From NCBI GenBank assembly GCA_021323475.1, contig JAJQJM010000002.1:1-58578 (forward strand): DNA of 58,578 nt. The letters are read 5' to 3'. The position numbers were made by a program, and so were the translations under genes. Each line of letters opens with the position of its first letter. Position 1 is the stretch's first letter. The stretch is from Vampirovibrio sp. GTDB taxonomy: Bacteria; Cyanobacteriota; Vampirovibrionia; Vampirovibrionales; Vampirovibrionaceae. This document shows positions 11,777-58,495 of this stretch, one piece after another. The notes below the pieces were generated by a model. It was not told where the DNA came from. It worked only from the letters and a program-made list of their open reading frames with translations, and did no database searches.

Positions 11777-11824
11777 ACGTTGTATCCTTTCGTACTACGA
11801 CCTTGTATTGCTGAACGTCATGCT

Positions 11825-11861
11825 AAAAACCCCTGGGCTTCGTTGGAATCGAGCTCAGGGG
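11825..11861 (-). terminator. intrinsic terminator/attenuator hairpin between the Arg-rich leader ORF and argJ
   Basis: Minus-strand RNA is CCCCUGAGC-(14-nt loop)-GCCCAGGGG followed by UUUUU. Stem arms are at 11853-11861 and 11830-11838, and the U-run is at 11829-11825. Confidence 0.6.
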
Positions 11862-11886
11862 TTTTGTAAATTCCGGTTCTTGTTCG

Positions 11887-11988: not shown

Positions 11989-12018
11989 GTCCAACCTGCC
12001 AATTGATAGTGCCTAGCT

Positions 12019-12047
12019 AAATTACCTTTAAACCCGGCTATTGTCAA
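12019..12047 (-). promoter_or_regulatory. candidate internal promoter for the leader-argJBDGH unit
   Basis: Minus strand: consensus TTGACA (12047-12042), 17-nt spacer, TAATTT (12024-12019). It lies directly after the argC stop. Confidence 0.4.
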
Positions 12048-12068
12048 CAAAAAAACAGCAGGCCGTTA

Positions 12069-22409: not shown

Positions 22410-22603
22410 GACTGCATTATACCAAAGCGAACCCAAGCTTTCTGGAAGCCCCCCTATTCAGCCCTACACACCACTACAGTATGTATAAAGCACCCAATAT
22501 CCAAACTTAATCCGTTACTAAAAGTGTAAAAACGGCTACCATTAATCAGCTTCCGCTGGTACCATTCATAAGTGAGAATCCAAAGCTGCTAGGAATATGC
22601 CCC

Positions 22604-23281: not shown

Positions 23282-23315
23282 CATCAATAGAAGTAAGCTG
23301 TCAGTAGCAGGATAT

Positions 23316-25094: not shown

Positions 25095-25245
25095 TCCATC
25101 TCTTCGCTCTATGCCGGGTAGACAGCATCAATGCTCGTAAGGTTTATCATAACGCAGTCAACCGACACATCTAAGCTATAAGCATTCATCTGCTCTAAAA
25201 GGAGGTGACCGAAGGGAGAACCTCACTGTGCTGAAGTAATGAGCT

Positions 25246-26637: not shown

Positions 26638-26854
26638 TTTGCTGCGATTTGGAGAACATGCGGGAAACCATAGTTTTCAGGCTCACCCAGTAAGACTTTA
26701 AAACGAACAGAAAACCAAACAAGGAGGCAAGCGCCACTTGAATCACATAACTTCCACTACCAGGATCGATATAGGCCTGCGCAGGCTCGGGTGATATTGC
26801 CATAATGCCGATAATCAGCAATGCCCAGTTGGCCCGTTTTCCAATTTCAGACAT
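26603..26854 (-). CDS. small membrane protein with AYIDPGSGS motif
   Basis: ATG 26854 has AAGGGA upstream. The protein has a hydrophobic N-terminal segment, then AQAYIDPGSGSYVIQ, then a TM helix. It overlaps the next gene by 35 nt. Confidence 0.5.
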   Translation of the reverse strand: MSEIGKRANWALLIIGIMAISPEPAQAYIDPGSGSYVIQVALASLFGFLFVLKSYWVSLKTMVSRMFSKSQQNESATQQSKTQ

Positions 26855-27009
26855 GAAAGTAAATCCCTTTCCACATCGCTTAAGTCTGGTTTTAATATTC
26901 GACAATTTTCATTTGTTTAAATATCAAAACGCACGAGCTTGGTAAGAAATCCAGTAGATACCACGATATTAGGCTATTATTGCATACGCTCTCAATCTGT
27001 TCAAGGAAA

Positions 27010-29148: not shown

Positions 29149-29214
29149 GAAATAAAAACACCTGAAACATCATTCCCAATATTCATCCATATAAACAGCA
29201 CCATTCACGGAAGT

Positions 29215-30000
29215 TCAACCTGCCCGTCTAATCAGTTCAATATCAAAAAAGTAGGCCATCCATGGATTTAATGGTGATAAAAGCCGCTCTACCCTTAAAA
29301 GCAGTGGCATCAACCCGGCTGGTATCAAACTTCGGTAGGTGATACCGCCAGTAATAAAGTAGCTGATCATAGTATGGCGTCGTAAGCGAACTTCAAATTC
29401 AGGAAACTCCTTCTCAAAGAGTGCAATGTCTCTGCAAAATATAATCCACGGCAGAGCCAGATTACTCATACTCAATGGTCCGCCCGGCGGAAGCTGCCAA
29501 TCAGCCGCATGCTCATCATAGGGCTCATGATGAAAATTCTTACGAATCAGCCCACCTAACAAACTATGGTACGGCTCAATCATCAATACTCGGCCACCCG
29601 GTTTCAGTACACGCGCGGCTTGCCGGAAAAACGCCCGGGAATTCGGAATATGATGTAACACGTTTTGCATAAAAATTCCGGAAACCGAAGCATCCTCCCA
29701 CGGTAAGGCATGGGCATCCACTACCTGATCCACGGAAGGAAGAGGCAAGACATCGGTGGTAATCAGCTCCGGCATAAAGTCTTTAGCAAACCCTCCCCCG
29801 GAACCAATTTCAACCATGAGACCACCTGACGGGCACTGCTGGGCACACTCTTTATACTTTTGGTAAAAGCGACTATATACCGTATACAAAGCCTTCTTTC
29901 GCTGGATTAACAACCGATGAAGCTGGGTGGTATCCGGATGATCCTGATCCAATGCCTGAAGCGCAGGTTCTTTTAGAAGTTTCTTAAGCACTTTTACCAT
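29215..30000 (-). CDS. class I SAM-dependent methyltransferase
   Basis: Motif I reads MVEIGSGGGF. LKPGGRVLMIEP is also present. Confidence 0.75.
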   Translation of the reverse strand: MVKVLKKLLKEPALQALDQDHPDTTQLHRLLIQRKKALYTVYSRFYQKYKECAQQCPSGGLMVEIGSGGGFAKDFMPELITTDVLPLPSVDQVVDAHALPWEDASVSGIFMQNVLHHIPNSRAFFRQAARVLKPGGRVLMIEPYHSLLGGLIRKNFHHEPYDEHAADWQLPPGGPLSMSNLALPWIIFCRDIALFEKEFPEFEVRLRRHTMISYFITGGITYRSLIPAGLMPLLLRVERLLSPLNPWMAYFFDIELIRRAG

Positions 30001-30116
30001 ACAAAAACCACAATAGAGACCGTAAACCAGAAGCTATCCTATCCTAAATCCCTATAGGCAAACAGTCAACCAAGGCAAAACAGCAAAATGGCTCACTTAA
30101 GTTGCAACCGCCTTGA

Positions 30117-31889
30117 TTATACCAAGCTCAAACCGTCCGCAGGAGAAAACTGCAGATGGTACAGTTTACTGTAAAAGCCATTTCGCTCCAGCAATTCCGT
30201 ATGAGAACCAATTTCCATAATTTGCCCTTTCACCATAACCACAATCCGACTGGCGTATTTAATTGTGGAAAGGCGGTGCGCCACAATAAAGACGGTTCGG
30301 TTTTTCATGATATCCAACAATGCATTCTGAATCATTTGTTCGGACTCGCTATCCAGAGCGCTGGTGGCCTCATCCAACAATAAAATGGGCGCATCTTTCA
30401 AGAACGCTCTGGCAATAGAGATTCGTTGTTTTTGCCCTCCTGACAACATACCACCCCGCTCACCCACTCGGGTATTCAAACCTTCCGGAATAGAATCAAT
30501 CCAGTCCAGAAGGTATGCCTTGCGAGCCGCTTCATAGACCTCTTCATCCGAAGCCTCCAACCGGCCAAAGCGAATATTATCTGCAATTGTACCGTCAAAC
30601 AAAACCGTATCCTGGGAGACTATCGCAATTTCAGAACGCAATTGTTCGAGAGAAGTGTCACGAAGGTTCACGCCGTTATACAAAACGGCACCGTCTATCG
30701 GATCCAGAAAACGAGGAATCAATTCTATTAATGTTGACTTTCCGCCACCACTAGGCCCAACGAACGCAATCGTTTCCCCTGCCCGAACGGTCAAGTTTAT
30801 ATGCTGAAGTACCGGGACTCCAGGCTTATACTCAAAGTCAAGATTACGGAATTCCAAAGTTTCCAAAGGAGTTAATGGTATCGGATCGTCTGACTGTCGC
30901 ATATCCGGCTTGAGATCCATTTTCTGAAATACCCGCTCCGCCGGAGCTAAAATCCGCTGAATTTTACCCAGAATGGCAGCAATCACCTTTACCGGCTTAT
31001 ATAACAGAACAAGGGCCACCAAGAACGATACAACGTCCCCATGCGTCATGGCTCCGGTTTGAATTTGATAAGTGCTGAGCAAGATAATTCCACTAATACC
31101 CAAGCCGGCAATAAATTGCATAATCGGCTTCAGTATGGTTTCCGACTTGCTGATGCGCATTGAGGTAGAAAAAAATTGGTCCAGCGCTTTTTCAAATCGC
31201 TTTCGTTGAAAATCCTGCCGCTGAAAAGAAAGAATCTCTTTCATTCCAAACAAAGTTTCATAAATGGTATTGACCAACCCCGCGGATACTTCTCGGGATT
31301 GATGATCCAAACGTCGAATTTTCTGACTGATGAAATGCAGCGGCAAGCCAATCATCGAAATAATCAGGATGGCAAAAATGGCCAGCTGCCAATTACGGGT
31401 GAAAAGCACCACCGCCAGAAAAAGCCCCGTGAACAATTGTATGATGAAGCCTTGAAGATTAGTGACAATGGCCTGCTGTAAAGTAGTAGGATCGGTATAA
31501 TATCTGGTAATCAACTCACCGGATGAGTTACGTTTGAAATATCCCAAGTCCATCACAATCAAATGCTGAAATAGCTCTCTACGAATATCGCGAGTAATTG
31601 CAAACCCGATATAGTTCGTAAAGTAATCACTAATATACTCGAATAAACCCTGCATGATCGTGACGATCAAAACAGCTACCGGCAGTAAGAGGATGTATTT
31701 TGCATCCTTACCTTGGATCATTGCATCCAGAAAAGGACCAATCATCCAGGCGATTAAACCATTCAGCGAAGAAGCCGGTACAGAAGCCAACAATGACCAT
31801 ATAAAGCGCGTTTTATACGGCTTAATATAGCCCAGCAAACGGACGTAAAGTTTTTGATCCTTCTTGGGGTTCGATTGAGGGTTCGACAT
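30117..31889 (-). CDS. ABC exporter, fused permease/ATPase, MsbA-like
   Basis: A six-TM N-terminal domain precedes Walker A GPSGGGKST, signature LSGGQKQR and Walker B ILLLDEATSALD. Confidence 0.9.
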   Translation of the reverse strand: MSNPQSNPKKDQKLYVRLLGYIKPYKTRFIWSLLASVPASSLNGLIAWMIGPFLDAMIQGKDAKYILLLPVAVLIVTIMQGLFEYISDYFTNYIGFAITRDIRRELFQHLIVMDLGYFKRNSSGELITRYYTDPTTLQQAIVTNLQGFIIQLFTGLFLAVVLFTRNWQLAIFAILIISMIGLPLHFISQKIRRLDHQSREVSAGLVNTIYETLFGMKEILSFQRQDFQRKRFEKALDQFFSTSMRISKSETILKPIMQFIAGLGISGIILLSTYQIQTGAMTHGDVVSFLVALVLLYKPVKVIAAILGKIQRILAPAERVFQKMDLKPDMRQSDDPIPLTPLETLEFRNLDFEYKPGVPVLQHINLTVRAGETIAFVGPSGGGKSTLIELIPRFLDPIDGAVLYNGVNLRDTSLEQLRSEIAIVSQDTVLFDGTIADNIRFGRLEASDEEVYEAARKAYLLDWIDSIPEGLNTRVGERGGMLSGGQKQRISIARAFLKDAPILLLDEATSALDSESEQMIQNALLDIMKNRTVFIVAHRLSTIKYASRIVVMVKGQIMEIGSHTELLERNGFYSKLYHLQFSPADGLSLV

Positions 31890-32028
31890 GAGACGCAAGG
31901 TGACCTTTCGTGCTTATGTGTATTGTACCCCAAACCCGCAGAAAGGCATGATGTCAAAGGATACAGGAGTCCATCCAGTAACGTAGCCGCCTTCCAAATC
32001 CACTTGAAGGCTGGCTACAATGCCCAAG

Positions 32029-33570
32029 TTAATGACCAGTTACCTTACAGTCGGCCTTGTCACTCATATCATAAAACGCATATGGCCGACGAGGATATAT
32101 AAAATATTGCTTATCAGGCAAGTCCGTATAATCCATGCCGTAATAGTAGCTCAACACCCGGCGAAATGTATTGACTGGTGTAATCGTGGGATAGACGACA
32201 TTGAACTTGTTGTCAGCTCCATTGCCGGGCAGATAATAAGCGTTCAAAATAGATAGACGCTCCTGAATATAGGATGGAGTCCAGCCATCAGTAAGATTAC
32301 CGGTAAGAGGAGTGCCATGATCCCCCTGAATGATGATGATAGGAGGTGTTTTGGAATGCGCCAGAATTTGGTCGATAATCTTGATAATACGATGGTTCAG
32401 ATAAACAAGCTGATCATTAAACGCCGCCTTCAGCATGACCTTATCTTTGGAGTAAGGATCCACCGATACGGGATTACCATTATGATCAAAGTGGAACGGT
32501 GGATGCGGGCTGATAACGTGAGAAAAGACGAATTTAGGCCCTGAAATCTGAGGAACCTCTTCTTCCAACTGTTGCAGCGAATGAAGAATATGCTTGCGGA
32601 GCGTTGTGTAATATAAGTCATTTTTCCAATACTTGGATAGCAGGGTTGTTTCCATAAATTCCAATGGAAACTCGTCGGCAGGGCCAACGAGGTTAATATC
32701 CGCATTTACATTTTTCTTAAATGGAGGAGACCAGCTTCCGACATGCACATACTTGTAGCCCATCTGTTTCAGGATTCTTTGAAGGTCATAATCCTTGAGC
32801 ATATCAGTGTAAACTGAGTAATCATTCGTTTTATCTTTATAGGTCTTCTCTAAATAATTTAAATACTTGAAGTTCAAGGACGAAGACAGTGAAAGAAAGG
32901 TTCGCGGGTAATTACTACAACTTTTAGGAGCCACGTAAAATCCCCTACGCTGTAACGCATCCACAAAAGATTTATTTGAACCGTCCAACAAACGTTCGAT
33001 AATGTCAGCCCGCGGATAAGCGTCAAAAATCATGTAATACACATCGGGTTTTTGCCCGTGCAAAACGGCAGCAAGCCGGCCTTTGATCGCCTCTTCCGAT
33101 TTAGAATGAGACACGTGGGCAGCGTTGCCAGCCATATAAGCGCCGACTGTCACACCGCTCATCACCAATAATGCAATCGAGAAAAACGTTAAAAAACGAG
33201 TTACCGGCTCCAGGCTGGCTTTAGCTCGAAACGCATAAAAACACCCTAGTGCCACAAGTACGCCCTGAAACAACAAAACTTTGTCACTGTTAATTGAAAT
33301 ACCGTATGCCTGCTTCAGTTCATTATGCAAACCCAACAGGTGCCCATAAGCAAAAAATAGAAAAATCAAAAGCGAAGTAACGAACGCTGCGCGCCGCTTA
33401 TCTGAGATAATAATACCCAGCAAGGCATAGATTAACAGTACACCCCCTAATGATAGCGCCAACGGCACCAGGATATCCGTGAAAGGCGTTTCATCCAGAC
33501 TGACTGAATACAGGTATAGGACAGGATAGGCCGCAAAAAACAAGGGATGTAGAGGCGCTTTACGATGCAT
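32029..33570 (-). CDS. second membrane-anchored sulfatase-fold protein
   Basis: An N-terminal TM block is followed by a domain containing IIIQGDHGTP. Confidence 0.6.
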   Translation of the reverse strand: MHRKAPLHPLFFAAYPVLYLYSVSLDETPFTDILVPLALSLGGVLLIYALLGIIISDKRRAAFVTSLLIFLFFAYGHLLGLHNELKQAYGISINSDKVLLFQGVLVALGCFYAFRAKASLEPVTRFLTFFSIALLVMSGVTVGAYMAGNAAHVSHSKSEEAIKGRLAAVLHGQKPDVYYMIFDAYPRADIIERLLDGSNKSFVDALQRRGFYVAPKSCSNYPRTFLSLSSSLNFKYLNYLEKTYKDKTNDYSVYTDMLKDYDLQRILKQMGYKYVHVGSWSPPFKKNVNADINLVGPADEFPLEFMETTLLSKYWKNDLYYTTLRKHILHSLQQLEEEVPQISGPKFVFSHVISPHPPFHFDHNGNPVSVDPYSKDKVMLKAAFNDQLVYLNHRIIKIIDQILAHSKTPPIIIIQGDHGTPLTGNLTDGWTPSYIQERLSILNAYYLPGNGADNKFNVVYPTITPVNTFRRVLSYYYGMDYTDLPDKQYFIYPRRPYAFYDMSDKADCKVTGH

Positions 33571-33815
33571 TCACTGATTTACCTTTTGGAGTTTTCGGAT
33601 TGCACGATGGGGGACATGACTACTTATGTCAGGCTATAAAGTGAGGATTATGAATTATTACATCCTGACAATTGCCCATTGGCTATCTAATCGCTATTGA
33701 TGGGCAGATATCGGTTGAATACCAGCATAGCCTTGTTCATAGTACCAGAAGCCAAAGGCGAGTACAAATGCGCGACTTGGACTCACTTACAAAAGACCTC
33801 ATCTATCCACCTCCG

Positions 33816-33829
33816 GCTTTTGCAAAAGC
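33816..33829. promoter_or_regulatory. 14-bp perfect palindrome in a divergent intergenic region
   Basis: The sequence is GCTTTTGCAAAAGC, ~90 nt upstream of the GT2 gene. Confidence 0.2.
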
Positions 33830-33914
33830 GGCGCTCTCGATTATAGCAAACAGCCCCTAAGTATTTGCTTCCAGACCAAGCGTGCATAAATGTTTTTACA
33901 CTATAATTGTCTGT

Positions 33915-34799
33915 ATGAAACCGTATGTGTCTTTCTTAATCCCCTGTTTCAATTATGCCCGGTATCTGCGTGAGTGTCTGGACAGCATTCTGAACCAGAG
34001 CTTTACAAATTTTGAAGTTCTGATCCTTGATGATGCTTCTACCGACGAAACCCCTGAGTTGGCCCGAGAGATAGCCGCTACAGATTCAAGGGTTCAGTAT
34101 TATCGCCATGAAAAAAACATCGGCCACCTGAACAATTATAATTTCGGTATCCAAAAGGCTCAGGGCGAGCTAATCTGGCTTATCTCCGCCGATGATTACC
34201 TGGCGTCCGGCACGATTTTAGAATCCTTTACCCAACAGTTTCAGGCCCACCCTCAACTGGGTTATGCGTTCTGTCGCGTTCAATGTATGGATGAGCATTC
34301 CAACCCCTACCCCAAATTCATCCCTCGCCTCGAAGAAAAGTCGCTTTCAAGCGAGCCCCACCTGTATCCCGGCAGGGCCTTATTTCGCGAGCTGGTAAAG
34401 GGCAATTTTATTCCCGCGCCAAGCGTACTGGCCCGAAAAGCCTGCTACCAGCAGTATGGTCACTTTCATTCCGAACTCACCCATAGTGGAGACTGGTACA
34501 ATTGGCTGCTCTTTTCGTTGGACTGGGACGTCTATTACGATCCCGAACCCAAAGTGTATTACCGCAAACACAACCAGAACATGCACATGACTTACCAGAA
34601 GCCCCGCCACGCTCTGGATAATTCCCTGCTTTGCTATTTAGAACTGGAAAAATTCCTGAAAAAACACCAATATCCGGCAGTGTTACTGCGCAGCGCTTAT
34701 CTGGCCAAGCTTTACTTCATGAAAAAGAACGGGTATCCCGTATCGCCCTTGGGCAAGTTGTTCCTACTGTATGGAAAAATGATGAGGCATCTTGCCTGA
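33915..34799 (+). CDS. glycosyltransferase family 2
   Basis: The N-terminal region reads SFLIPCFNYARYLRECLDSILNQSF..ILDDASTDET. I preferred ATG 33915. The ORF is open from GTG 33882. Confidence 0.85.
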   Translation: MKPYVSFLIPCFNYARYLRECLDSILNQSFTNFEVLILDDASTDETPELAREIAATDSRVQYYRHEKNIGHLNNYNFGIQKAQGELIWLISADDYLASGTILESFTQQFQAHPQLGYAFCRVQCMDEHSNPYPKFIPRLEEKSLSSEPHLYPGRALFRELVKGNFIPAPSVLARKACYQQYGHFHSELTHSGDWYNWLLFSLDWDVYYDPEPKVYYRKHNQNMHMTYQKPRHALDNSLLCYLELEKFLKKHQYPAVLLRSAYLAKLYFMKKNGYPVSPLGKLFLLYGKMMRHLA

Positions 34800-47302: not shown

Positions 47303-48031
47303 TTAGATCGCTGGCTGCAAATACTGTTCGTAAGGCAACAGCCGTTGACAATGCTCCGGGCTCATCCCTATGATAAAGCCATATTCCTTGTCTGTTTCCC
47401 GAAACAATATAATTTTTGCATCCGCGTTATTGCCGGAAACGACTTTTAATAAGTCTAGAACCCATTGCTCCCTCTCTGGCATTGAGGCAGGCAAAGGCCC
47501 AGCTGAATAGACAACCTGGTCTTTCTCCAGAATTCTCAACGTGGTATCGACATCGGTGCCAGTCACTTCCACCTTGTTCAGCATTTTTTTCTGCTTGAAA
47601 TAGGTGGTTATTGCCGCTTTCACATCATCAAGCACGTAACCCTTCGGAAGAATAATGCCGAAGTAATTGCATAGCAGGCGATTGATCATCTCTGGCATTA
47701 GCGCCTCGCTTGGCTGTTGGTTCCAAACTTCCGACGTGTACCGGATAATACCGAAGTTCAGGGATTGCCGGAATGCCATGGCCAGTTCCGGATAACAAAC
47801 GCCCATCTCCCGGCGAAACTCCTGACTGGGCAATGCCAGCTCATCAAAAAGCGTTTCTGAAATCTGCCGGACGATGGGATTAGTATTGGCCGGATTCCGC
47901 TTGGAGCCTGGACTATTGGCTCCCTTGCGATTCTTCATTAAAAAATACAGCACCAGGGCCGAACCGGGAATCAGCACCAGTGGCAGCAGTCCGCTCATAG
48001 CATCCGTCATCGTTATCGTGCCCGCTTCCAT
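47303..48031 (-). CDS. hypothetical membrane-anchored protein
   Basis: One N-terminal TM helix (LLPLVLIPGSALVLYFL) precedes a 200-aa soluble domain with no motif I recognise. The gene is divergent from prkA. Confidence 0.55.
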   Translation of the reverse strand: MEAGTITMTDAMSGLLPLVLIPGSALVLYFLMKNRKGANSPGSKRNPANTNPIVRQISETLFDELALPSQEFRREMGVCYPELAMAFRQSLNFGIIRYTSEVWNQQPSEALMPEMINRLLCNYFGIILPKGYVLDDVKAAITTYFKQKKMLNKVEVTGTDVDTTLRILEKDQVVYSAGPLPASMPEREQWVLDLLKVVSGNNADAKIILFRETDKEYGFIIGMSPEHCQRLLPYEQYLQPAI

Positions 48032-48471: not shown

Positions 48472-50886
48472 ATGATTAACCTCACCACGTTTTCGGGCGT
48501 CAATCGTACGCAGCTACAAACACGTAAAAAAACCGAATCCAAACAGAAACCGGAAGCCCAGTCTCACGCTTCAACCGGCCCTAAAACCCTATTGGCAAAG
48601 CCCTCTGCCGGGCTTGCAAAAGTCTACTTTGGCGGCGTCAATCTGTCGGATGCCATTAAAGGCAGCAGCGAAGTCGCCAAACCCCAGCAACTCAAATCCG
48701 TGATGTCCATTCAGGACTATGTGGACACCATTGAGCAGCATCCACTGTTGCTAAGAAACACCGCCCAATATGCCCAGGACATGATCAACCGGGAAGGTGT
48801 CCGTAAAAAAACCAAGTACGGACGCGACATTCTGGAATACGATTTTTTTACTCACCCTCAAAACCCCGAAATGAAAGGCTTAAAAGGCAATCAGGGCTCC
48901 ATTAACGATGTGATGATGCACATTCGTGCCGCCGCCAGACGGCAGGATTTGGGCAAAAAACCCATTGTACTCATGGGGGGCCCCGGTTCCGGCAAAACCA
49001 GCATCGGTGATTTGATGGTGGACGGCTACGTGCGTTACAGCAAAACCGATGAAGGCGCTCGTTACGCCTCCAAATTGGTGAATCTGCCTGAAGATTTACG
49101 GATGGGTGAGGAATACGTAGAAGAAACCCTGGCCGATCCGTTGCTGTTTTTACCTCAGGAAATTCGTAAACAGGTGGTCAATTCCGCCAAACCCAAATTT
49201 GAAAAATTAAAACAGGAAGTCACCAAAGCCGAGGCGCAGAATGGCTCCGTTCGTCCCAATCTGTACGATTATGAAGTGGGCATTGAAGGCGACTTAACGC
49301 CGAAAACTCAATACATTATGAAACATCTGCAAAACATGTACCTGGATCAGGCCATTAAAATGCAAGGGCTGGACCGGGATGAACTGGAATCCGAGCCTGG
49401 CCAAAAACGCCTGGTAGACCTAAAGCGGCAGGCCTATCACAAAGCGCTGAAAAATCATTTGCAGGTCTATAAGTTCGAATACAATCCCAACGCGGTACCG
49501 GGTGGTATCGGCGTGTTTTCCGCAACGGATTCCAAAACGCTGAACACTGCCAAAATTAATGGCCAGGTCAACATGGTACGGCTGATGGATCTGCCGGAAA
49601 GCGATCCCCGCCGGTACGACTATGTGGACGGAGCCGCGTTCCGGGCCAATCGGGGCGTATTCCGCCTAAAAGAAATGCACAAAAACCCCGAAGCCTTCTA
49701 TCCGTTATTGCTGGACTTGGCACAAAGTCAGTTGATTGAGGTAGAAAGCGGCAACGCCACGGTACACAGTCTGATTCTGGCGGATTCCAACTTCCCGGAA
49801 CTGATTGAAAAGAAGGGCAAAGACGTGCTGACTGCCGCCATGAAGCGCCTGGATCACATTTATGTCACTCACCCGCTGGAGTTGTCTGCGGAAAAAGAAA
49901 TCCAGCACAGCCTGTTCGCGGACTTTGAAAAAGCAACGGGCGCACACGGCAAAAAAGGCCACGTAGCGCCACACACCAAAGACATTGCCGCATTGCTTGC
50001 CGTCATGTCCCGTCTCACAGTTCCAGAAGACAAATTGACGGAAGGTCCCGCGTTCCTGGCCAAAAAAGCCGCCGCCTATAACGGCGACGTGGTGGAAGGC
50101 ATTGAAGAGCAGGAAGTGAACGAATGGTATGAAAAAGGCCAAAAGGCTGATGATATCGAGCAGAAAGAAGGAATGGACGGCCTGTCGGTTCGGGAGATGC
50201 AAACCCTGACTAACCTGGTGACCAACGACCTGAACGTGCGTGATCTGAATTCCATTGACGGGTATGGTTATCTGCGCATTGTGCGCGATGTGCTGGAAAA
50301 GAACCGGCTGACCCTTTCCGATGAGATCAAGGAAAAGTCCCTGAACCTGCTGGGTGTGGCCGAACGGCAACTGGATGATCGCGTCAAGGGTGACGTGACC
50401 GAGGCATTGGCCGGTGATCCGTCTTATATGCAAAACATTTTTGATGCCTACCTGACCAACGTGATTGCCGAGAAGCGGGGCAAACGGGTGAGAGATCCGC
50501 TGACCAGCGAAATGGTGCCACCCGATAAGGACTTGATGGAAGACATTGAAAAACGCATGGGCCTGACGACTTATAACGATCGGCGCCAGTATCGGGATAG
50601 CCTGGCGGCGCGGGTCGGGATGCTAACCATGGAAGGACGTAAATACGAACTGGATAATGATCCGAAACTGAAGAAAGCGATTCTGGATCGGGCATACGCC
50701 AGAACGGTGGATCGGATTGACTCCAAAGTGCTGCTGACGTCTCATCCGAACCAGCGGGAAAAAGAACAACAAAACACGCTGGTGCAGCGCTTAATTGCCA
50801 GAGGATATAACGAGCTTACGGCCAATAACGCGCTGGCTCGCGTCAGCATGTTGGCCAAACGCGATCCGAAAATCCTGAACTCGTAG
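48472..50886 (+). CDS. prkA: PrkA-family AAA+/serine-kinase-like protein, paralogue 1 (804 aa)
   Basis: Walker A is GGPGSGKTS. FRANRGVFRLKEMHKNPEAFYPLLLDLAQ aligns with the YeaG segment CRANQGIMEFVEMFKAPIKVLHPLLTATQ. GAAGGGG RBS lies upstream. Confidence 0.85.
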   Translation: MINLTTFSGVNRTQLQTRKKTESKQKPEAQSHASTGPKTLLAKPSAGLAKVYFGGVNLSDAIKGSSEVAKPQQLKSVMSIQDYVDTIEQHPLLLRNTAQYAQDMINREGVRKKTKYGRDILEYDFFTHPQNPEMKGLKGNQGSINDVMMHIRAAARRQDLGKKPIVLMGGPGSGKTSIGDLMVDGYVRYSKTDEGARYASKLVNLPEDLRMGEEYVEETLADPLLFLPQEIRKQVVNSAKPKFEKLKQEVTKAEAQNGSVRPNLYDYEVGIEGDLTPKTQYIMKHLQNMYLDQAIKMQGLDRDELESEPGQKRLVDLKRQAYHKALKNHLQVYKFEYNPNAVPGGIGVFSATDSKTLNTAKINGQVNMVRLMDLPESDPRRYDYVDGAAFRANRGVFRLKEMHKNPEAFYPLLLDLAQSQLIEVESGNATVHSLILADSNFPELIEKKGKDVLTAAMKRLDHIYVTHPLELSAEKEIQHSLFADFEKATGAHGKKGHVAPHTKDIAALLAVMSRLTVPEDKLTEGPAFLAKKAAAYNGDVVEGIEEQEVNEWYEKGQKADDIEQKEGMDGLSVREMQTLTNLVTNDLNVRDLNSIDGYGYLRIVRDVLEKNRLTLSDEIKEKSLNLLGVAERQLDDRVKGDVTEALAGDPSYMQNIFDAYLTNVIAEKRGKRVRDPLTSEMVPPDKDLMEDIEKRMGLTTYNDRRQYRDSLAARVGMLTMEGRKYELDNDPKLKKAILDRAYARTVDRIDSKVLLTSHPNQREKEQQNTLVQRLIARGYNELTANNALARVSMLAKRDPKILNS

Positions 50887-50898: not shown

Positions 50899-52884
50899 AT
50901 GATGCCCACAGTGATTCCTCCCGGTTACGGGAGTATTCCTAAACCCGGCGTTGCAGGCATTGCCAAGACGCCCAAAAAGCCGAAGCCCGTGCCGCATGGT
51001 ATGGAGCAAACCCATGTCAGCCCGCCTCGTACAGGTGGAATGGACGCGCTTTCCGCCTACAATCGCACACGGTTGAAATCGGTTCATCCAAGATTTAAAG
51101 GCTCGGAGGGGGTAGGGCGTTATCCGTTTGATCAGGTGGATATACGGCTGGGCACACACCCTGATACCCCCTATTTGAACAAGCTGGATCACTGGATGCG
51201 CAAGGTCTGGGAAGAGGCCACCAAACCGCGCCCCGGCTTTGAAAACGGCTGGCTGCAACCGATGGATACCCTGTTTCAGGTATCAAATCAGGTGGACCTG
51301 ATGGAGGCTGCCGCCCGGAGCGGTTTCCCCACCCGCTACCGCCATTGGTCCTGGGGCCAGGATTTCAACAATCAGTACCAGCGCCAGCGGTTCGGCCTGG
51401 GACGCTTGTATGAAATGGTCATCAACACCAACCCGTCCTATGCGTTCTTATATGATCGCAACCCGGTTTACGCCCAAAAGGTGGTAATGGCCCACGTATT
51501 GGGGCATACGGACTTTTTCAGAAACAACGTCATGTACTCGGAAACCAACCGGAACATGGTACGGGTTATGGCCGACCACAAGGCCAAAATTGAGCGTTAT
51601 TATCAGGATCCACGCCTGTCCCGTACAACGCAAGGCGGAGTGCATCCGGTAGAAAAATTCCTGAACAAATTCAACGCGTTGGAATGGCTGGTGGACATGA
51701 ACGCGTTATCGCCCCCACCGTTGGAATCGGAAAAAGCGCCTGAACACCGGGAAGAGGACGACTTCGGCAAAGTCGGTGTTAATACTAAAAAATTGGGTGT
51801 CGCCCCTTGGATGCAGGACTTTCTGTATACCAACAAGGCATGGCAAAAGTACCGGAATGATACGATTCAGGAAGGGGACGCCACCCATGCCAAAACGCTG
51901 AAGCAGCCCACCCGCGATATTCTGGGTTTTCTGGTGGAAAACGCCAAGGTGTTGCATCCGTGGCAGCAGGATATTTTACGCACCCTGCGGGAGGAGTCGT
52001 ATTACTTCGTTCCGCAGGTGCGCACCAAACTGATGAACGAAGGCTGGGCCACCTTCTGGCACCATAAGCTGATGAACGATTGCCCCAGCCTGATCGACGA
52101 ATCCGAAACCACGGATATCGCCAAAAAGATGGCTGGGGTTGAAGCGCCTTCCCAGAATGGGATTAACCCATACCAGGTCGGGTATGCTATTTTCCAAAAT
52201 ATTTACGATCGGGCCGCATACGGATTGGATGATTTTGACACCACCTTCCAGCCCAATAAGACCATTAAATACAAAGACCTGCGGGACCGGATGGAGCATA
52301 CTAAGCCCAACGAAGAAGCCGGATTGAAAAAAGTGCTGGACGTTCGAAAACAGTATAACGATGTGGAATTCATTCGCACGTTCTTCACGCCGGAAGTCGC
52401 CGAAAAGCTGGGCATGGTAGTGACCAACGAACGAGAGGAATGGGATTCCCGAATGGGTCAGCGGGTCAAAGTGAAATTCGTGGAGTCGGACGATTTCAAC
52501 CAATTGAAATCGATGATTCTGGCCCAGTACCAGAACATGTTTCCCACGCTTAGTTTAGTAGACGCCAACCACAATAATCAGGGTGAATTGCTCATCAAGC
52601 ATGAAAACACGGTACAGGATTTGGACTTACAGGATACAAAAGAAACGCTGGCCGTGCTGAATGAATTCTGGGGACATCCCATTCACCTGGACACCATGTT
52701 TGAGGTGGAGGGGGATGTGCCGCCACCAAGGCCGAACCCATGGGGCTTTGGCTTTATTGAGCCGGAGGTTCCGGAGTTTAAGCGCCAACCGGTTCGGCTG
52801 TCTTATAAAAACGGGAAAATGCAGATGTTTACCTTGTCCAAGGACGGTAAGCCCCTCAAAAACATTACGGATAAATATTTATAA
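50899..52884 (+). CDS. spoVR: SpoVR/YcgB-family protein (661 aa)
   Basis: AHVLGHTDFFRNN and YYFVPQVRTKLMNEGWATFWH are present. GGGGA RBS lies upstream. Confidence 0.85.
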   Translation: MMPTVIPPGYGSIPKPGVAGIAKTPKKPKPVPHGMEQTHVSPPRTGGMDALSAYNRTRLKSVHPRFKGSEGVGRYPFDQVDIRLGTHPDTPYLNKLDHWMRKVWEEATKPRPGFENGWLQPMDTLFQVSNQVDLMEAAARSGFPTRYRHWSWGQDFNNQYQRQRFGLGRLYEMVINTNPSYAFLYDRNPVYAQKVVMAHVLGHTDFFRNNVMYSETNRNMVRVMADHKAKIERYYQDPRLSRTTQGGVHPVEKFLNKFNALEWLVDMNALSPPPLESEKAPEHREEDDFGKVGVNTKKLGVAPWMQDFLYTNKAWQKYRNDTIQEGDATHAKTLKQPTRDILGFLVENAKVLHPWQQDILRTLREESYYFVPQVRTKLMNEGWATFWHHKLMNDCPSLIDESETTDIAKKMAGVEAPSQNGINPYQVGYAIFQNIYDRAAYGLDDFDTTFQPNKTIKYKDLRDRMEHTKPNEEAGLKKVLDVRKQYNDVEFIRTFFTPEVAEKLGMVVTNEREEWDSRMGQRVKVKFVESDDFNQLKSMILAQYQNMFPTLSLVDANHNNQGELLIKHENTVQDLDLQDTKETLAVLNEFWGHPIHLDTMFEVEGDVPPPRPNPWGFGFIEPEVPEFKRQPVRLSYKNGKMQMFTLSKDGKPLKNITDKYL

Positions 52885-52919
52885 CAATTCACGCATTCGC
52901 GAACCATAGGTAACTCGCA

Positions 52920-54944
52920 ATGACCAGCATGACGCCAACCAGTTCCGCCACATCGCTGTTGCGGCCAGCCATTGAAAAACGCCTCCACACAAAGTCGGTT
53001 AAATTCAAAGGTGATGAGCCTGCCAAACCGATCGAACAAACATCAAACGATCGATTTTCCGCAACGTCAACAGATTCCGTAACCGTCGTTGCAAAACCGG
53101 AGCCTCATCCCCATACGCCTCAGGCCTCGCCTTGGCTGAAAGTGCTGGATGACATGCTGGAAAATGCGCATGCGGAACAAGAGGAAATCAACGGCATTCC
53201 GGTGGCGGAACTGATTTATATGCGGGAAAAAATCCGTCGGGCACCCAAAATCGCCCCCGTTGACGAGCAAGGCAAGGTTCGAGAATTACACCCCTGCCCG
53301 TTACCGGGTCAGCCTTCCCAACTGTGGGCCATGCTGAGCCGGGACACCATTGGCTCCGATCACCCGGATTCCAAACGGTTCTGGGATATTATCGACGGCA
53401 AAAACACGCCGAAAGATATGCTGGATAAAATTTCCAAACGGCAGGTTAAAATCGGCCCCAAGGGGCAAATCAGCTTTCCCTCCCCTAATATCAAGCGCCC
53501 GCGGATTTGGTGGGGACAGCCAGGCTCCCAGCAAAGCAAACGGGGACAGCAAGGTAAAAACGGTCAGCCGGGCCAAGGCCAGGGAATCGGCTCACATCCC
53601 GGTAAAAAAGCGGGCGACGTGATCGGCAAACGACCGGCCAAGGGCGGCAAGGGAGCCGGGCGAGAAGGCGAAGCCGGAGAAGGCGCAGGCGATTACCCGA
53701 AAGAACTATGGACGCCGCCGGTGCCGCGTTCGCAGGTAGCCAAGCTATTACAATCAGAATGGGGGCTGCCCTTCATCGAACCGCGCGGCAAGGGAAAAAT
53801 GAACCAGTTTCAGGAGTTTTGGGATCAAACCACTACGACGCCGCCCAATCTGGTTGAAAAATACCCGACGTTGAAAAACGCCATTCAACGTTCATTCGCC
53901 AAAGCCTGGTACGACAAGCCAATGAGCATGACCGAGCGCATCCGCAACGGCATGCATCCGGGCTCAGCGGCCATTCCAATCAAAGAAATACAGATTCAGG
54001 GCAACACCCTGGTGGGCAAAAAAACATTGGACAAAGCGATGGAGGAATTTCAGGGAAAAGACCTGACTTACGAGGATTTAACCAAAATCCTGACCCGTCT
54101 GGATCAAAAATATCAGGCGGCCGGTTACCCAACATCCAAGGCCATTATTCCGCCGCAACCACTGGATTCCCAGAAGCTGGTGGTTGATGTGCGCGAAGTG
54201 CGTGACACGTTTAATCCCAGGGATATTCAGGTTCACTCCAAAGATAAAGTTCGCATTGCCGCCCGTGTGGCGCCCAAGCCGGTGGCTAAAACGGCCATTC
54301 TCTACATTATGGATGTATCCGGTTCGGTCAGTAACGACATGAAGGAAATGGCACGGGTGCAGAATTATTTTCTGGATACGCACCTGATGTACCAGTATGG
54401 GTTGGTAGCCGCCCAACTGGCCAACGAAAAATACGATGACAAAAAACACTTCGGGCAAGGCGTGGTACGCCGGTTTATCGTGCATACCGATGGAGCCGAG
54501 GAAACCACCGAGGAGGAATTTTACACCACCGGGCAATCCGGCGGCACCAAAATTTCTTCCGGCTTTAAATTAGCCAAGGACATTATTGAAAAAGACTTCC
54601 CAAAGGATGAATGGAACATTTACGTGTTCTACCAGGGTGACGGAGACAATTACCAAAGCGATAACGACACCAGCATCAAACTGATGAAAGATCTGCTGGA
54701 GGACGGTGTCAATATGATTGGCTATACCCATTTAGCCCCGTATTACGAAGGCAGCACCTCCAACTCCGACGGGCTGAACCGTTGGAATTTTTACGGAGAG
54801 GTTCAGAAGCATCTGGGCGATCGCCAAAACGTTAGAACATCCATTCTGCATCGCCCGGAAATCCAGGAGTACAAGCAATCGATTCAGCGTCTGTTGGAAG
54901 AAAGCAAAAGTGGAGAAACCAAGAGCGGAGCGAAAAAGTCATGA
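52920..54944 (+). CDS. yeaH: YeaH/YhbH (DUF444, vWA-like) family protein with inserted POTRA-like module (674 aa)
   Basis: A Gly-rich GQPGQGQGIGSHPGKKAGDV..GEGAGDY tract is followed by the MIDAS-like IMDVSGSV and by GQSGGTKISS and YQGDGDN. Confidence 0.85.
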   Translation: MTSMTPTSSATSLLRPAIEKRLHTKSVKFKGDEPAKPIEQTSNDRFSATSTDSVTVVAKPEPHPHTPQASPWLKVLDDMLENAHAEQEEINGIPVAELIYMREKIRRAPKIAPVDEQGKVRELHPCPLPGQPSQLWAMLSRDTIGSDHPDSKRFWDIIDGKNTPKDMLDKISKRQVKIGPKGQISFPSPNIKRPRIWWGQPGSQQSKRGQQGKNGQPGQGQGIGSHPGKKAGDVIGKRPAKGGKGAGREGEAGEGAGDYPKELWTPPVPRSQVAKLLQSEWGLPFIEPRGKGKMNQFQEFWDQTTTTPPNLVEKYPTLKNAIQRSFAKAWYDKPMSMTERIRNGMHPGSAAIPIKEIQIQGNTLVGKKTLDKAMEEFQGKDLTYEDLTKILTRLDQKYQAAGYPTSKAIIPPQPLDSQKLVVDVREVRDTFNPRDIQVHSKDKVRIAARVAPKPVAKTAILYIMDVSGSVSNDMKEMARVQNYFLDTHLMYQYGLVAAQLANEKYDDKKHFGQGVVRRFIVHTDGAEETTEEEFYTTGQSGGTKISSGFKLAKDIIEKDFPKDEWNIYVFYQGDGDNYQSDNDTSIKLMKDLLEDGVNMIGYTHLAPYYEGSTSNSDGLNRWNFYGEVQKHLGDRQNVRTSILHRPEIQEYKQSIQRLLEESKSGETKSGAKKS

Positions 54945-57481
54945 TTACCTTACCGCCATCCCTGAACGTAATACCAGCTAAAAAGCAGGTCCGGAAATCC
55001 CTTGGTACTCCACCGACACCTATCTCGAATGCCCCTCGGCCAAGTTCGCGCACTTTGCAAAAGGACACGGTGCAGTTTTCCGGGCAACACCCGAAAGCTG
55101 ATGCCGCCGAGCAAACCAAGGCGGGTCAATATGTAGATAATCTGCTGGATCAATGCGATCAGCAGACCACTGTTCAACGAATGACGCTGCGGGATTTCCT
55201 GCTGAACTCCAAACTGGAGCCCAAGCGTTATTTACCGACCGCCAGTTCATATGTGCTGGATGCATTCGATTATTACGATAAGCCAGGCGGACCGCAGCAG
55301 GTAACCGTGTATGGCGAGCCCATGCGTCGTTTCAATATTATGAACACGCCCTGGAACAATCACCTGTCGAACCCAGCCCGTATCTACGGTCATGAGCCAA
55401 CCGTCAATCGCATATGGGAAATTTTGCGCTCGTTTAAACAACAACCGAACGCGGATCGGGGTATTGCGCTGTTTGGCCCGCATGGCAGCGGCAAAAGCGT
55501 TATTGCCAAATCCCTGATGACGGGCGTGGAAAATTTTTCCAGGCAAGATGAGGGGGCCTTATGGACCTATTCCTTTGTGTTTCCGGACGGACAAAAAGTA
55601 AAGGCCCAGCCCAAGGATGAGGCTGATATCTGGATGCAGGACGTGGCAGATGGTAAAACGCTGATGGAGCCGGATAAAATTGCGGCCCAATTGATGGCGA
55701 ACCTCAATTTAAATCCTATTTTCTTGTTGCCTCCTCAGCAACGCACCGCCTTTTTACAGGATTTGAAAAAAGAAGGCAAAATTGAGCCCGATTTTAATAT
55801 TGACTATTATCTGAAAGCGAACCTGGAAGGCAATGCCCAGCGCATTTTAAACAAGTTGCACCACTTGTATAGCGAAGATCCCAAAAAATTCCAGAAAACG
55901 ATGGAGCACATCCAGGTGGAGCGCTGGACCATGTCCGCACAGGACTACCGAGGACTGGTGGAAGTGCCGGCCTCCCGCAACCCGGACGCGGTGATGCGGG
56001 AAATTCCCGGTGAGCATCCGCTGGCCAAAGCGCCGGATTTGGTAAAAACTGCCGGGAAACGGGCATTGGAAGGACTCATGCCTCGCGCCCATCGCGGTAT
56101 TTTTTACATGGATGATTTCGGCCGTAACGGCATGCCGTTCGATCATTTGCTGATGCCGCTGGAAACGGGAGAAGTGACCATTCAAGAATTGCACGGACCT
56201 GGCATTACCAAGGAATTATTGGACTTTGTGCCCTTGTTGTCCGTAAACCCGGAAGTGTTGGAACGCACCAAACAGCACGGCAATTTTGACGCATTGGAGC
56301 AGCGCATGCTGTTTGTTCCGGTTCCCTTTGAGCGCCGCTATAAAGTGGAATCCCAGGTCATGGCGCCAATTTTAAACCATGCCAAGGCCCTTGGTAAAAA
56401 AATCGCGCCGGACACCCTGGAATCCTTTGCCTTGTGGGTGGCCATGAGCCGCATGTTCCCCATCGATAAAAATTACCAGCCCTACCAGGAAATCAGCAAA
56501 AACAACAAGGATTTTGCATCCGCGCTGAGCAAGCTGACGCCATTAGGCAAAGCCCTGCTGTACCAGGGCGAGGCTGTTCCCGGCCTGTGCGCGGATGAGC
56601 AGGAAGCCCTGGTGGAAAACCTGAAAACCATCGCCGGAGAGCATAACCAATCTTTGGGAGAAACGGAATTTACGCTCTATGAAGGTGGGGTCGGCATGTC
56701 GAATCGGGCGGCCACGAACGTGCTGAAACGAGTAACAGCCCGGCACGACAATGAGCCTATCAGTTTTTTGGACATGTTTGAGGCCATTGCCAGGTACGCC
56801 GGCAATAAACCCCAATACGAAATGAAGCGCGCCCAAATTCTGAAGGACAAGGGTAAAACCATTCCATTTCAATCCGGGCTGGAACTGCTGAGAGAGGTTG
56901 AAGATTTTCAGCGGCAGAAATTCATGAAGCAGCTGAAGGATGCCTTGGGCATGTACCAGGACCCGTCCGTTTACGCCCAGCGCATCCAGCAATACGGGGA
57001 TCATATCGCCGCCATGCAGGAAGGAAAGTCGGTGCCTCCGCGTTCCCAAGTGGACGGTGACCCCAAACCCAGCCGGCGATTGATTCTCAGTTTCGAGCAA
57101 ACCGCTCACCCGGATAGGCGATTAACTGATAGCGAGCGCAAAGCGTATCGTACCGATTTTTTGGCCCGCGCAATCGATTGGGACACGGATCTGCCGGATG
57201 AGGAGAACGTCACCCAGATCTATCAGAATGAAATGAGTCGGTTACGCACGAAAGACGAGCAGGAAAACAAGCAATACTTGACCGAGTTCCGCAATAACGT
57301 CAAAATCCTGCTCAAGGACCCGCAAGCCTTTGAGCCCCAAAAGGGCCTGCCTTCCACCCAGAGGTTGGAAAATGCGCTAAAAACGCTGGGCGATATGGGC
57401 TACAGCCCGGAAGTGCTGCCGAAAATTCTGGATTGGGCCTTGGAACACCGTTACGTGGCCGAACAGGTCAAATCGCAATAG
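54941..57481 (+). CDS. prkA: PrkA-family AAA+/serine-kinase-like protein, paralogue 2 (846 aa)
   Basis: Walker A is GPHGSGKSV. AHRGIFYMDDFGRNGMPFDHLLMPLETGE aligns with the PrkA core. The start forms an ATGA overlap with the yeaH stop. Confidence 0.8.
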   Translation: MITLPPSLNVIPAKKQVRKSLGTPPTPISNAPRPSSRTLQKDTVQFSGQHPKADAAEQTKAGQYVDNLLDQCDQQTTVQRMTLRDFLLNSKLEPKRYLPTASSYVLDAFDYYDKPGGPQQVTVYGEPMRRFNIMNTPWNNHLSNPARIYGHEPTVNRIWEILRSFKQQPNADRGIALFGPHGSGKSVIAKSLMTGVENFSRQDEGALWTYSFVFPDGQKVKAQPKDEADIWMQDVADGKTLMEPDKIAAQLMANLNLNPIFLLPPQQRTAFLQDLKKEGKIEPDFNIDYYLKANLEGNAQRILNKLHHLYSEDPKKFQKTMEHIQVERWTMSAQDYRGLVEVPASRNPDAVMREIPGEHPLAKAPDLVKTAGKRALEGLMPRAHRGIFYMDDFGRNGMPFDHLLMPLETGEVTIQELHGPGITKELLDFVPLLSVNPEVLERTKQHGNFDALEQRMLFVPVPFERRYKVESQVMAPILNHAKALGKKIAPDTLESFALWVAMSRMFPIDKNYQPYQEISKNNKDFASALSKLTPLGKALLYQGEAVPGLCADEQEALVENLKTIAGEHNQSLGETEFTLYEGGVGMSNRAATNVLKRVTARHDNEPISFLDMFEAIARYAGNKPQYEMKRAQILKDKGKTIPFQSGLELLREVEDFQRQKFMKQLKDALGMYQDPSVYAQRIQQYGDHIAAMQEGKSVPPRSQVDGDPKPSRRLILSFEQTAHPDRRLTDSERKAYRTDFLARAIDWDTDLPDEENVTQIYQNEMSRLRTKDEQENKQYLTEFRNNVKILLKDPQAFEPQKGLPSTQRLENALKTLGDMGYSPEVLPKILDWALEHRYVAEQVKSQ

Positions 57482-57484: not shown

Positions 57485-58495
57485 TTATGCATTCAAATAC
57501 AGCGACGGGGCACTCAAATGTTTACGGGGTATTTTTCCGCAGTCCAGAAACTCGCCCCGTTCAGAAATAGTTCGATAGGTCAACCCCTGAGGGGTAATTT
57601 CAAACAGCATAAAGTGCAGGCGTTTGAGCAAACCGTTGCCCTCCGGGCCGCCACGTTTGGGAGTATCCAGCTTGCCCCCGGCACCACTCACCAAATGATA
57701 CGTACCGTTGATCAGCACCGGTTTTTCATAGTGGTGCTCATGCCCGGCCATATACAAATCCACCCCGTATTTGGTAAAAAGCGGCGCTAACTGCTGAGAC
57801 AATATCATTTGCTCCATGTTGCGCTTGGGTTTGGTTTTCGCCCCGGTAGAATACAGCGGATGGTGGGCATAAACCACCTTCATGGAAGCGGTGCTACTGG
57901 CCAGGGTTCGTTCCAGCCAGGCCAACTGGCTGGCTGCCTTCTGTTGAGCCAAGAATGGATTTGCAAAATCCTGTGGGTTGGTGCCGGGTAACAACATGTT
58001 GGTATCCAGCCCCCAGAATTCAATATCGTAGCCCGGTGGCCCCAACTTGAAGTTATAAAACGGCGGCACACCCCAATAAGCCGATTGCCAATCGCCATAG
58101 CCCTGCTTCACATCGTGATTGCCCCGGACGGGCCTGAATTGCACACCTCGTTGGAATAAGTCCTGATACGGGCGGGCAATCCGATCCTGGAACAGGGATG
58201 GCTCCCCGTTAGGGTAAACGTTATCTCCCAGTACCATCACCGTATTAAACGGCGCAATACGGTGCCAAACGGAAAGCTGACGGGCTACCTGGTACTGGGC
58301 GGCATCCCCCGTGCCGGCGTCTCCCATCACGGCAAAGCGAAAAGGCGCGTTTTTCGGATTGGGCCAAAAGGTATACTCCGGCCCCACATGCGGATTAAAC
58401 GACACCTGCGAGGCGTAACCACCCAGCGGCAACCTGGAAGGCAATGGACGATAAGCTGGTATGGCGGACGGTGCAAGAGTCATAGCAGACTGCAA
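57485..58495 (-). CDS. calcineurin-like metallophosphoesterase
   Basis: The motifs GDAG, GDNVY, GNHD, AHHPLYS and GHEHHYE occur in canonical order after a ~50-aa N-terminal extension. Confidence 0.85.
   Translation of the reverse strand: MQSAMTLAPSAIPAYRPLPSRLPLGGYASQVSFNPHVGPEYTFWPNPKNAPFRFAVMGDAGTGDAAQYQVARQLSVWHRIAPFNTVMVLGDNVYPNGEPSLFQDRIARPYQDLFQRGVQFRPVRGNHDVKQGYGDWQSAYWGVPPFYNFKLGPPGYDIEFWGLDTNMLLPGTNPQDFANPFLAQQKAASQLAWLERTLASSTASMKVVYAHHPLYSTGAKTKPKRNMEQMILSQQLAPLFTKYGVDLYMAGHEHHYEKPVLINGTYHLVSGAGGKLDTPKRGGPEGNGLLKRLHFMLFEITPQGLTYRTISERGEFLDCGKIPRKHLSAPSLYLNA

Follow-up and report, generated by a model that had tools for sequence, protein, structure and literature searches.

This work concerns a short peptide motif that recurs in the N-terminal extensions of otherwise unrelated proteins encoded in a 58,578-nucleotide stretch of DNA from Vampirovibrio sp. 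(GenBank assembly GCA_021323475.1, contig JAJQJM010000002.1, positions 1 to 58,578 of the forward strand). The whole stretch is hereafter called the window. Four of the proteins, PrkA1, SpoVR, YeaH and PrkA2, are encoded by a single operon. The fifth is a class II amidotransferase-like enzyme of the N-terminal nucleophile (Ntn) type, assigned to GATase_4. Their coordinates are collected in Table 1. The operon represents the PrkA/YeaH/SpoVR module: PF08298 and PF06798, PF04285 and PF04293 are co-encoded, all above their gathering scores (Pfam bits of 113.7 and 90.4 for PrkA1, 310 for SpoVR, 142.5 for YeaH, 45.1 and 35.5 for PrkA2). PrkA2 is strongly divergent, with 23 bits against the NCBIfam PrkA model. 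The gene order PrkA1-SpoVR-YeaH-PrkA2, with two PrkA paralogues flanking the other genes, is unusual and common to all 14 related loci. The stop codon of YeaH and the ATG of PrkA2 overlap (ATGA). The ATG of all five long open reading frames (ORFs), those of the four operon genes and of the amidotransferase, is preceded by a Shine-Dalgarno-like purine run, located in the start region of PrkA1, GAAGGGGA, 8 nucleotides 5' of the ATG.

The original prediction, made from the sequence of the window, held that SpoVR, YeaH, PrkA2 and the amidotransferase possess N-terminal extensions alien to their families, each with a common 12-residue pattern. The four peptides translate exactly as given there (18877-18912, 51067-51102, 52977-53012 and 55049-55084), and the extensions are indeed atypical. 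The Pfam match of SpoVR begins far inside the protein (Table 1), and outgroup YafJ-like GATase_4 enzymes start with 'MC'. In a Saccharibacteria metagenome-assembled genome (MAG), the operon has the canonical order PrkA-YeaH-SpoVR and its proteins carry no extensions. The extensions of the operon proteins are lineage-specific and about 30-100 residues long, that of PrkA1 comprising approximately residues 1-76. An AlphaFold2 model of SpoVR, built from 65 sequences, has a confident core (predicted template modelling score 0.80), and its residues 1-76 have a predicted local distance difference test (pLDDT) below 50: the tail is modelled as disordered and does not dock in cis. The motif is therefore of the short linear kind and sits within a disordered tail.

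Two sets of relatives were compared. The close clade is represented by seven further relatives (L006-L012) together with L001, L009 holding PrkA1 and SpoVR only. The closest genomes by SpoVR identity are a Melainabacteria MAG (71%) and a Vampirovibrio chlorellavorus MAG (65%). Close-clade alignments were made with MAFFT from the first 150 residues of 8-9 orthologues per family. The sister clades are represented by five loci (L013-L017), reached through SpoVR homologues 34-40% identical and with long N-termini; all five share the order PrkA1-SpoVR-YeaH-PrkA2. Locus L002 (Melainabacteria MAG CABHPA01) is frameshifted in several operon genes and was used qualitatively only. Its frameshifts, in PrkA1, SpoVR and YeaH between positions 7600 and 16300, could be assembly errors or pseudogenes, and the motifs are readable in the right frames. 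A metagenome scan for further operons yielded only one near-identical short contig, L005. YeaH of the window contains a ShlB-type POTRA_2 insert (58 bits), which is recorded in most close-clade orthologues having a Pfam entry and is absent from sister-clade and canonical YeaH. YeaH is otherwise regarded as cytoplasmic, yet it bears this domain.

Comparison across 14 related genomes defines the conserved core of the motif as [K/S/R]-[V/P/I/L]-[R/K/H/Q/Y]-F-[G/A/S]-G. It takes the form F-x-G in the Vampirovibrionales-like (Melainabacteria) clade of the window and F-G-x, as ...[R/K/S]-F-G-x, in the sister clades, and it is present on PrkA1, SpoVR, YeaH and PrkA2 in every genome examined. In the close-clade alignments, no column of the extensions other than those of F and G is invariant or nearly so. 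The tails of sister-clade proteins cannot be aligned and often carry the motif more than once, with N-proximal copies in some of them. The pattern first proposed, x-R-L-x6-F-x-G, applies to SpoVR and YeaH and fails in PrkA2, which has R-T-L, and in the amidotransferase, where the ending is F-G-C. A spacing of 7 between Leu and Phe is found in all four window proteins but in none of 8 other SpoVR, in 1 of 7 YeaH and in 3 of 7 PrkA2 orthologues. The R-L pair and the spacing were accordingly rejected as a definition of the motif, since the MAFFT alignments do not retain them. Of the two looser copies suggested for PrkA1, KVYFGGVN is kept in all orthologues and LTTFSGVN is not conserved in the close clade. 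What survives of the original idea, a shared N-terminal signal on unrelated proteins, extends over about 14 genomes, five operon families and a GATase_4 subfamily, with a core other than the one it specified.

Unguided motif discovery with shuffled controls recovered the same motif. In 57 operon proteins, Gibbs sampling of the N-terminal 100 residues without a prior settled on the pattern [K/S/R]-[V/P/I/L]-[R/Y/K/H/Q]-F-[G/A/S]-[G...]-x with 11.8 bits. The resulting position-specific scoring matrix (PSSM) gives the operon proteins a median of 13.7 bits (minimum 6.8), compared with a 95th percentile of 7.1 bits in residue shuffles and a median of 2.5 and 95th percentile of 8.4 bits in 180 other ORFs of the same loci. 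Models trained with one family left out selected the same site in 56 of the 57 proteins. The held-out score exceeded the shuffled 95th percentile in 100% of PrkA1, 79% of SpoVR, 92% of YeaH, 46% of PrkA2 and 100% of ClpP-like proteins (the last are introduced below). A strict regular expression matched 42 of 56 operon-family proteins, GATase_4 included, versus 16 of 129 other ORFs, and most of these 16 matches are conserved enzyme motifs (ArgH 'WQGRF', YggS 'HFGENR', phosphoribosyl pyrophosphate synthetase) or spurious ORFs. These counts come from phylogenetically related sequences and are not independent trials; the cross-family result is independent of kinship.

A chance match in low-complexity sequence, or mis-called start codons leaving the motif untranslated, is hardly credible in the face of these data. 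It is true that the pattern was defined after the data had been seen, and that, for two of the four tails, shuffling the first 80 residues yields F-x-G fairly often (frequencies of 0.15, 0.24, 0.024 and 0.040 in the four window operon proteins). Nevertheless, all orthologues, 30-75% identical, keep F and G amid flanking sequence that cannot be aligned, and both unguided discovery and cross-validation lead back to it. Chance and composition were rejected on the basis of the shuffles, the 180 background ORFs, cross-validation and the comparison of orthologues. The codons of F (TTT/TTC) and G (GGN) vary synonymously, so selection acts on the peptide, and a nucleotide-level element was rejected for the same reason. 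Translation from the long-ORF ATGs is supported by the Shine-Dalgarno-like runs and the YeaH-PrkA2 overlap described above. We are close to certain that the motif is a genuine, selected signal shared across families.

Table 1. Genes and motif copies in the window and in related loci.
Feature	Locus	Position	Strand	Remarks
GATase_4 class II Ntn-type amidotransferase-like protein	window	18817-19914	+	365 aa, 31-residue propeptide; Pfam, NCBIfam
Propeptide junction S-P-R-F-G|C-R	window	18895-18915	+	Cys32 codon 18910-18912
PrkA1	window	48472-50886	+	804 aa; AAA_PrkA and PrkA C-terminal domain (Pfam); heads operon
PrkA1 N-proximal copy L-T-T-F-S-G-V-N	window	48481-48504	+	residues 4-11; not conserved in close clade
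PrkA1 motif K-V-Y-F-G-G-V	window	48619-48639	+	residues 50-56; F..G invariant in 9/9 close orthologues; site chosen by Gibbs sampling
SpoVR	window	50899-52884	+	661 aa; Pfam SpoVR match from residue 119 only
SpoVR motif H-P-R-F-K-G-S	window	51085-51105	+	residues 63-69; overlaps earlier-noted peptide 51067-51102
YeaH/DUF444	window	52920-54944	+	674 aa; POTRA_2-like insert, residues 353-425 (Pfam)
YeaH motif S-V-K-F-K-G-D	window	52995-53015	+	residues 26-32; alignment and Gibbs sampling
PrkA2	window	54941-57481	+	846 aa; divergent second PrkA paralogue (Pfam)
PrkA2 motif T-V-Q-F-S-G-Q	window	55067-55087	+	residues 43-49; alignment and Gibbs sampling
ClpP-like gene	L013	16204-17253
ClpP-like gene	L014	16455-17444
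ClpP-like gene	L015	6102-7103
ClpP-like gene	L017	10001-11215
AMP-binding enzyme	L013	4090-6285	-	upstream in-frame 'PRFGQ...VRFGR', left out by gene caller
Neighbour protein	L013	6638-7144		starts 'MQISAPRFQG'
Neighbour protein	L013	21419-21781		starts 'MNPVRFNG'
Neighbour protein	L014	17572-17961	-	starts 'AKPRFNG'
Neighbour protein	L014	19324-20394		starts 'TRFTG'

The amidotransferase is the sole protein whose mature N-terminus can be deduced. Its membership of GATase_4 is supported by a PF13230 match of 68.8 bits and by the relatives 1te5 and 3mdn in the PDB. Cys32-Arg33 aligns with the 'MC(R/E)L' start (MCRL or MCEL) of outgroup YafJ-like enzymes, so the 31 preceding residues must be removed for activity. 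All 8 close homologues retain F30, G31, C32 and R33, the rest of the propeptide being variable. A profile search over 1.84 billion representatives disclosed a large GATase_4 subfamily of approximately 320-430 amino acids, in which nearly all full-length members have a propeptide of 4-45 residues ending in x-F-G|C-R (about 50 divergent representatives); the shortest form is the 4-residue 'MLFG' of P0311. The original prediction had placed the end of the motif exactly at the propeptide cleavage site. It does end at the G|C bond, in the register F-G|C, one residue off from the one proposed. A PSSM trained on the operon proteins alone has its best match at the junction F in 61 of 68 GATase_4 sequences, with a median of 9.6 bits reached despite Cys replacing the preferred Gly at +2.

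This likeness could still be the product of two unrelated phenomena: F-G before Cys32 would serve autoproteolysis of GATase_4 proteins, and F-x-G of the operon proteins would be separate and convergent. Ntn-type enzymes generally process themselves (PMC9140057), which is what makes a role of F-G in autoproteolysis conceivable. In the window the amidotransferase gene lies 32 kb from the operon, Gly at -1 is common at Ntn junctions, and the close-clade operon motif favours G at +2, where the amidotransferase has Cys. We nonetheless regard such convergence as improbable. The held-out PSSM finds the junction F with a median above the background 95th percentile of 8.4 bits, and position -3 is R, K or Q at about two thirds of the subfamily junctions, as in the operon motif. 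In L006, L008 and L010, the GATase_4 gene is located directly downstream of PrkA2 on the opposite strand, which amounts to 3 of 7 close-clade loci with downstream sequence (L001 counted by its ORF list). Moreover, in the searches made, relatives of this lineage were the only source of propeptide-bearing subfamily members and of operon proteins with extensions. Self-processing is likewise the normal behaviour in MEROPS C44. In two subfamily members, P0276 and P0287, the catalytic Cys is instead preceded immediately by a sequence that, judged by eye, resembles a Sec-type signal peptide. If these signal peptides are real, the two proteins are exported Ntn enzymes matured by signal peptidase, and an external peptidase can generate Cys1.

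A candidate for such a peptidase is encoded in the sister clades. In four of the five loci (L013, L014, L015 and L017), PrkA2 is followed by a gene of the ClpP family. Its products, 329-404 amino acids long, have an intact Ser-His-Asp triad (GYAAS / IHQPLGG / ERD) and an N-terminal extension of 100-130 residues which itself contains 2-3 copies of the motif. They have PF00574 on record and score below every NCBIfam ClpP cut-off (e.g. 154.7 against 249), so they represent a divergent paralogue and not an orthologue of housekeeping ClpP. In L015, a gene for M17 leucyl aminopeptidase follows on the same strand. PrkA itself, an AAA+ ATPase, has no protease active site (PMC13001217), which makes a partnership with the ClpP-like peptidase plausible.

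Our preferred reading, held with a little less than even confidence, is that the extensions are propeptides subject to a dedicated maturation step, for which the motif serves as the site of recognition and cleavage. The extensions of the operon proteins would be pro-regions, cut C-terminally to F-G (or F-x). Proteins of the PrkA/SpoVR/YeaH module would thereby be left with the N-termini usual in their families, and the amidotransferase with Cys1 exposed. Where the operon encodes the ClpP-like peptidase, this would be the likely enzyme, and the PrkA AAA+ ATPases might feed it; in the clade of the window, the enzyme would have to be encoded elsewhere. Cleavage is suggested by three observations: the one protein with a deducible mature N-terminus has to be cut exactly after F-G, a motif-bearing peptidase resides within the sister-clade operon, and the motif of sister-clade YeaH stands directly before the family-typical N-terminus.

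Several points weigh against cleavage, in addition to the self-processing habit of Ntn enzymes mentioned above. The argument for it is indirect, being drawn from sequence and gene context. In close-clade YeaH, 60-70 low-complexity residues separate the motif from the conserved core, and the register differs between the clades, F-x-G versus F-G-x. No ClpP-like gene was detected by tblastn in the window or in any close-clade locus, and a protein search found long ClpP-like proteins in sister clades only, none on a contig with a close-clade operon. An AlphaFold2 model of the amidotransferase, built from 8 sequences, has a pLDDT of 60, and below 50 in the propeptide, and is thus uninformative on the placement of the propeptide. 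Finally, many proteins have 2-3 copies of the motif, which suits docking of the avidity type better than a single cut.

Docking is, indeed, the main and serious rival, though we consider it rather unlikely as a full account. The motif would then be a docking or assembly signal without obligatory cleavage, plugging the tails into a common pocket and so holding together the subunits of the module and the amidotransferase precursor. Candidate pockets are the hydrophobic clefts of a ClpP-like ring, the N-domain of PrkA or, in the clade of the window, the POTRA-like insert of YeaH, a partner already suggested in the original prediction, which would bind by beta-augmentation. Such a role agrees with the presence of the motif on every subunit of the module, often 2-3 times per tail, and with its location in a region predicted to be disordered. 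The close clade, devoid of the ClpP-like gene, has gained the POTRA_2 insert of YeaH, and ClpX and ClpA dock on ClpP by their IGF/IGL loops, which are also short aromatic-Gly motifs. Docking leaves unexplained, however, why the motif abuts the very bond to be cut in about 60 divergent amidotransferase sequences, and why a propeptide of only four residues, that of P0311, is sufficient. Docking and cleavage could also be two steps of one process.

A more elaborate version of the maturation reading is a long shot. Here the basic-F-G tails would mark the client set of a previously unrecognised, PrkA-centred maturation machine, in which the two PrkA ATPases would unfold substrates for the ClpP-like peptidase or serve as its adaptors. 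Where the ClpP-like gene is lacking, in the Vampirovibrionales clade, the Ntn 'amidotransferase' may itself be an F-G-specific peptidase, cutting first itself and then the others. Once freed of the tails, the whole PrkA/YeaH/SpoVR dormancy and stress module would become active.

Several unrelated small neighbour proteins in sister-clade loci also start with the motif, and an AMP-binding enzyme is preceded by in-frame copies (Table 1), so the client set may be wider in these genomes. The same neighbours would be expected if the motif were a lineage-wide N-terminal signal for sorting or turnover (export, compartment or pro-N-degron) on many proteins. We rate this as very improbable: a convincing copy is missing from all of the roughly 95 other close-clade ORFs, where the matches are conserved enzyme motifs or spurious ORFs, and genes for shell, secretion or transporter proteins do not recur consistently in the vicinity. 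In those organisms in which they have been studied, PrkA, YeaH and SpoVR reside in the cytoplasm. Sec, Tat and lipobox signals were rejected by inspection, without a predictor: the tails are hydrophilic and of low complexity, with no hydrophobic run or core, twin-arginine or lipobox.

Other genes of the window are noted briefly. A calcineurin-like metallophosphoesterase (57485-58495, minus strand) adjoins the operon; its N-terminal extension comprises about 50 residues, and it lacks a signal peptide. In L011 its gene (5165-6202, minus strand) lies about 1.3 kb away, on the upstream side of the operon. A role as phosphatase partner is conceivable. The original prediction had noted 'QVSFNP' in it beside the looser copies of PrkA1; this peptide is absent from the L011 orthologue, and the protein does not belong to the motif carriers. 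Directly upstream of the operon, in divergent orientation, is the gene of a 242-amino-acid protein without Pfam match (47303-48031, minus strand). Another protein without Pfam match, 856 amino acids long, has a signal-anchor-like N-terminus (14178-16748, plus strand). A compact arginine cluster occupies 5677-13115 on the minus strand, in the genomic order argH, argG, argD, argB, argJ, argC; the conserved N-terminal 'LWQGRFNG' of ArgH is a false positive of the motif regular expression. At about 20-47 kb lies a large cluster for polysaccharide biosynthesis, with genes for glycosyltransferases, methyltransferases, sulfatase-like membrane proteins, an ATP-binding cassette (ABC) exporter, DegT aminotransferases, a B12-radical S-adenosylmethionine enzyme and a Wzx-like flippase. 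Within it, positions 22000-34000 have a G+C content of 0.44-0.48, compared with 0.50-0.57 elsewhere, and may have been acquired horizontally.

In the literature on PrkA/YeaH/SpoVR, Vampirovibrio and Melainabacteria N-terminal extensions, we found no description of the motif, and none of the precedents compared here fits in motif, tail length or gene context. Targeting peptides of encapsulins and microcompartments are likewise short conserved peptides in disordered terminal extensions of unrelated, co-encoded proteins. This type of targeting was rejected, as no gene for an HK97-fold encapsulin or a bacterial microcompartment shell protein (BMC-H/P) is present in the gene tables of about 15 loci or of the window. 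Double-glycine (C39) leaders were rejected as well, since A, S, K, R or T frequently follows F and the junction in the amidotransferase is G|C; near the operon, a C39 ABC transporter gave a weak match in L007 only, about 8 kb upstream.

Another parallel is offered by ribosomal protein L27, whose N-terminal extension is removed by Prp, a DUF464 cysteine protease encoded next to rpmA. Prp recognises the motif L-x-L-Q-F-F|A at the end of a 9-residue extension, and capsid and scaffold proteins of Staphylococcus phage 80-alpha use the same motif. Both cases involve a short Phe-containing N-terminal motif on unrelated proteins, with one dedicated protease performing the cleavage in the Prp system. 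Here, in contrast, the extensions are 20-100 residues long and the core is basic-F-G; identity with the Prp/L27 type (L-Q-F-F|A-S-K) was rejected on both motif and tail length. No Prp (DUF464) gene is listed in the gene tables of the loci, whole genomes not having been searched for it.

The amidotransferase resembles the MEROPS C44 enzymes, whose fold family it shares: an N-terminal peptide extends exactly to the catalytic Cys and has to be taken off. The propeptide of Bacillus subtilis PurF, a class II (Ntn) amidotransferase of this group, reportedly has 11 residues. The propeptides described here differ in having basic-F-G at P3-P1 and a disordered sequence of up to about 45 residues, and in sharing their motif with unrelated proteins.

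ClpP removes its own propeptide, and its AAA+ partners dock via IGF/IGL loops. The fifth gene of the sister-clade operons is a ClpP-family gene with an intact triad, encoded beside the AAA+ ATPases PrkA1 and PrkA2, and the motif, like the loops, is a short aromatic-Gly element in a flexible segment. It is, however, F-G and not G-F, and occurs in the N-terminal tails of all partners, including the peptidase. Unlike ClpP, the ClpP-like proteins fall below all NCBIfam cut-offs, bear extensions of 100-130 residues and are missing from the clade of the window.

Few bacterial gene triads are conserved as widely as that of PrkA(YeaG), YeaH(YhbH) and SpoVR(YcgB), which is tied to sporulation and starvation survival. 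To our knowledge, the biochemistry of the triad is still unknown. The shared motif, together with a ClpP-family peptidase in the operon and a linked, N-terminally processed enzyme, offers a concrete handle on it. It suggests that the operon proteins are made as precursors or recruited via a common peptide, and that the PrkA ATPases may work with a peptidase. The system would also add an example, from non-photosynthetic relatives of cyanobacteria, of one processing or recognition motif on unrelated proteins. The operon described here shares with the canonical module the co-encoding of the same three families; it differs from it in the order PrkA1-SpoVR-YeaH-PrkA2, in the second, divergent PrkA, in the F-G tails of all members, in the POTRA_2 insert of close-clade YeaH and in the ClpP-like fifth gene of the sister clades.

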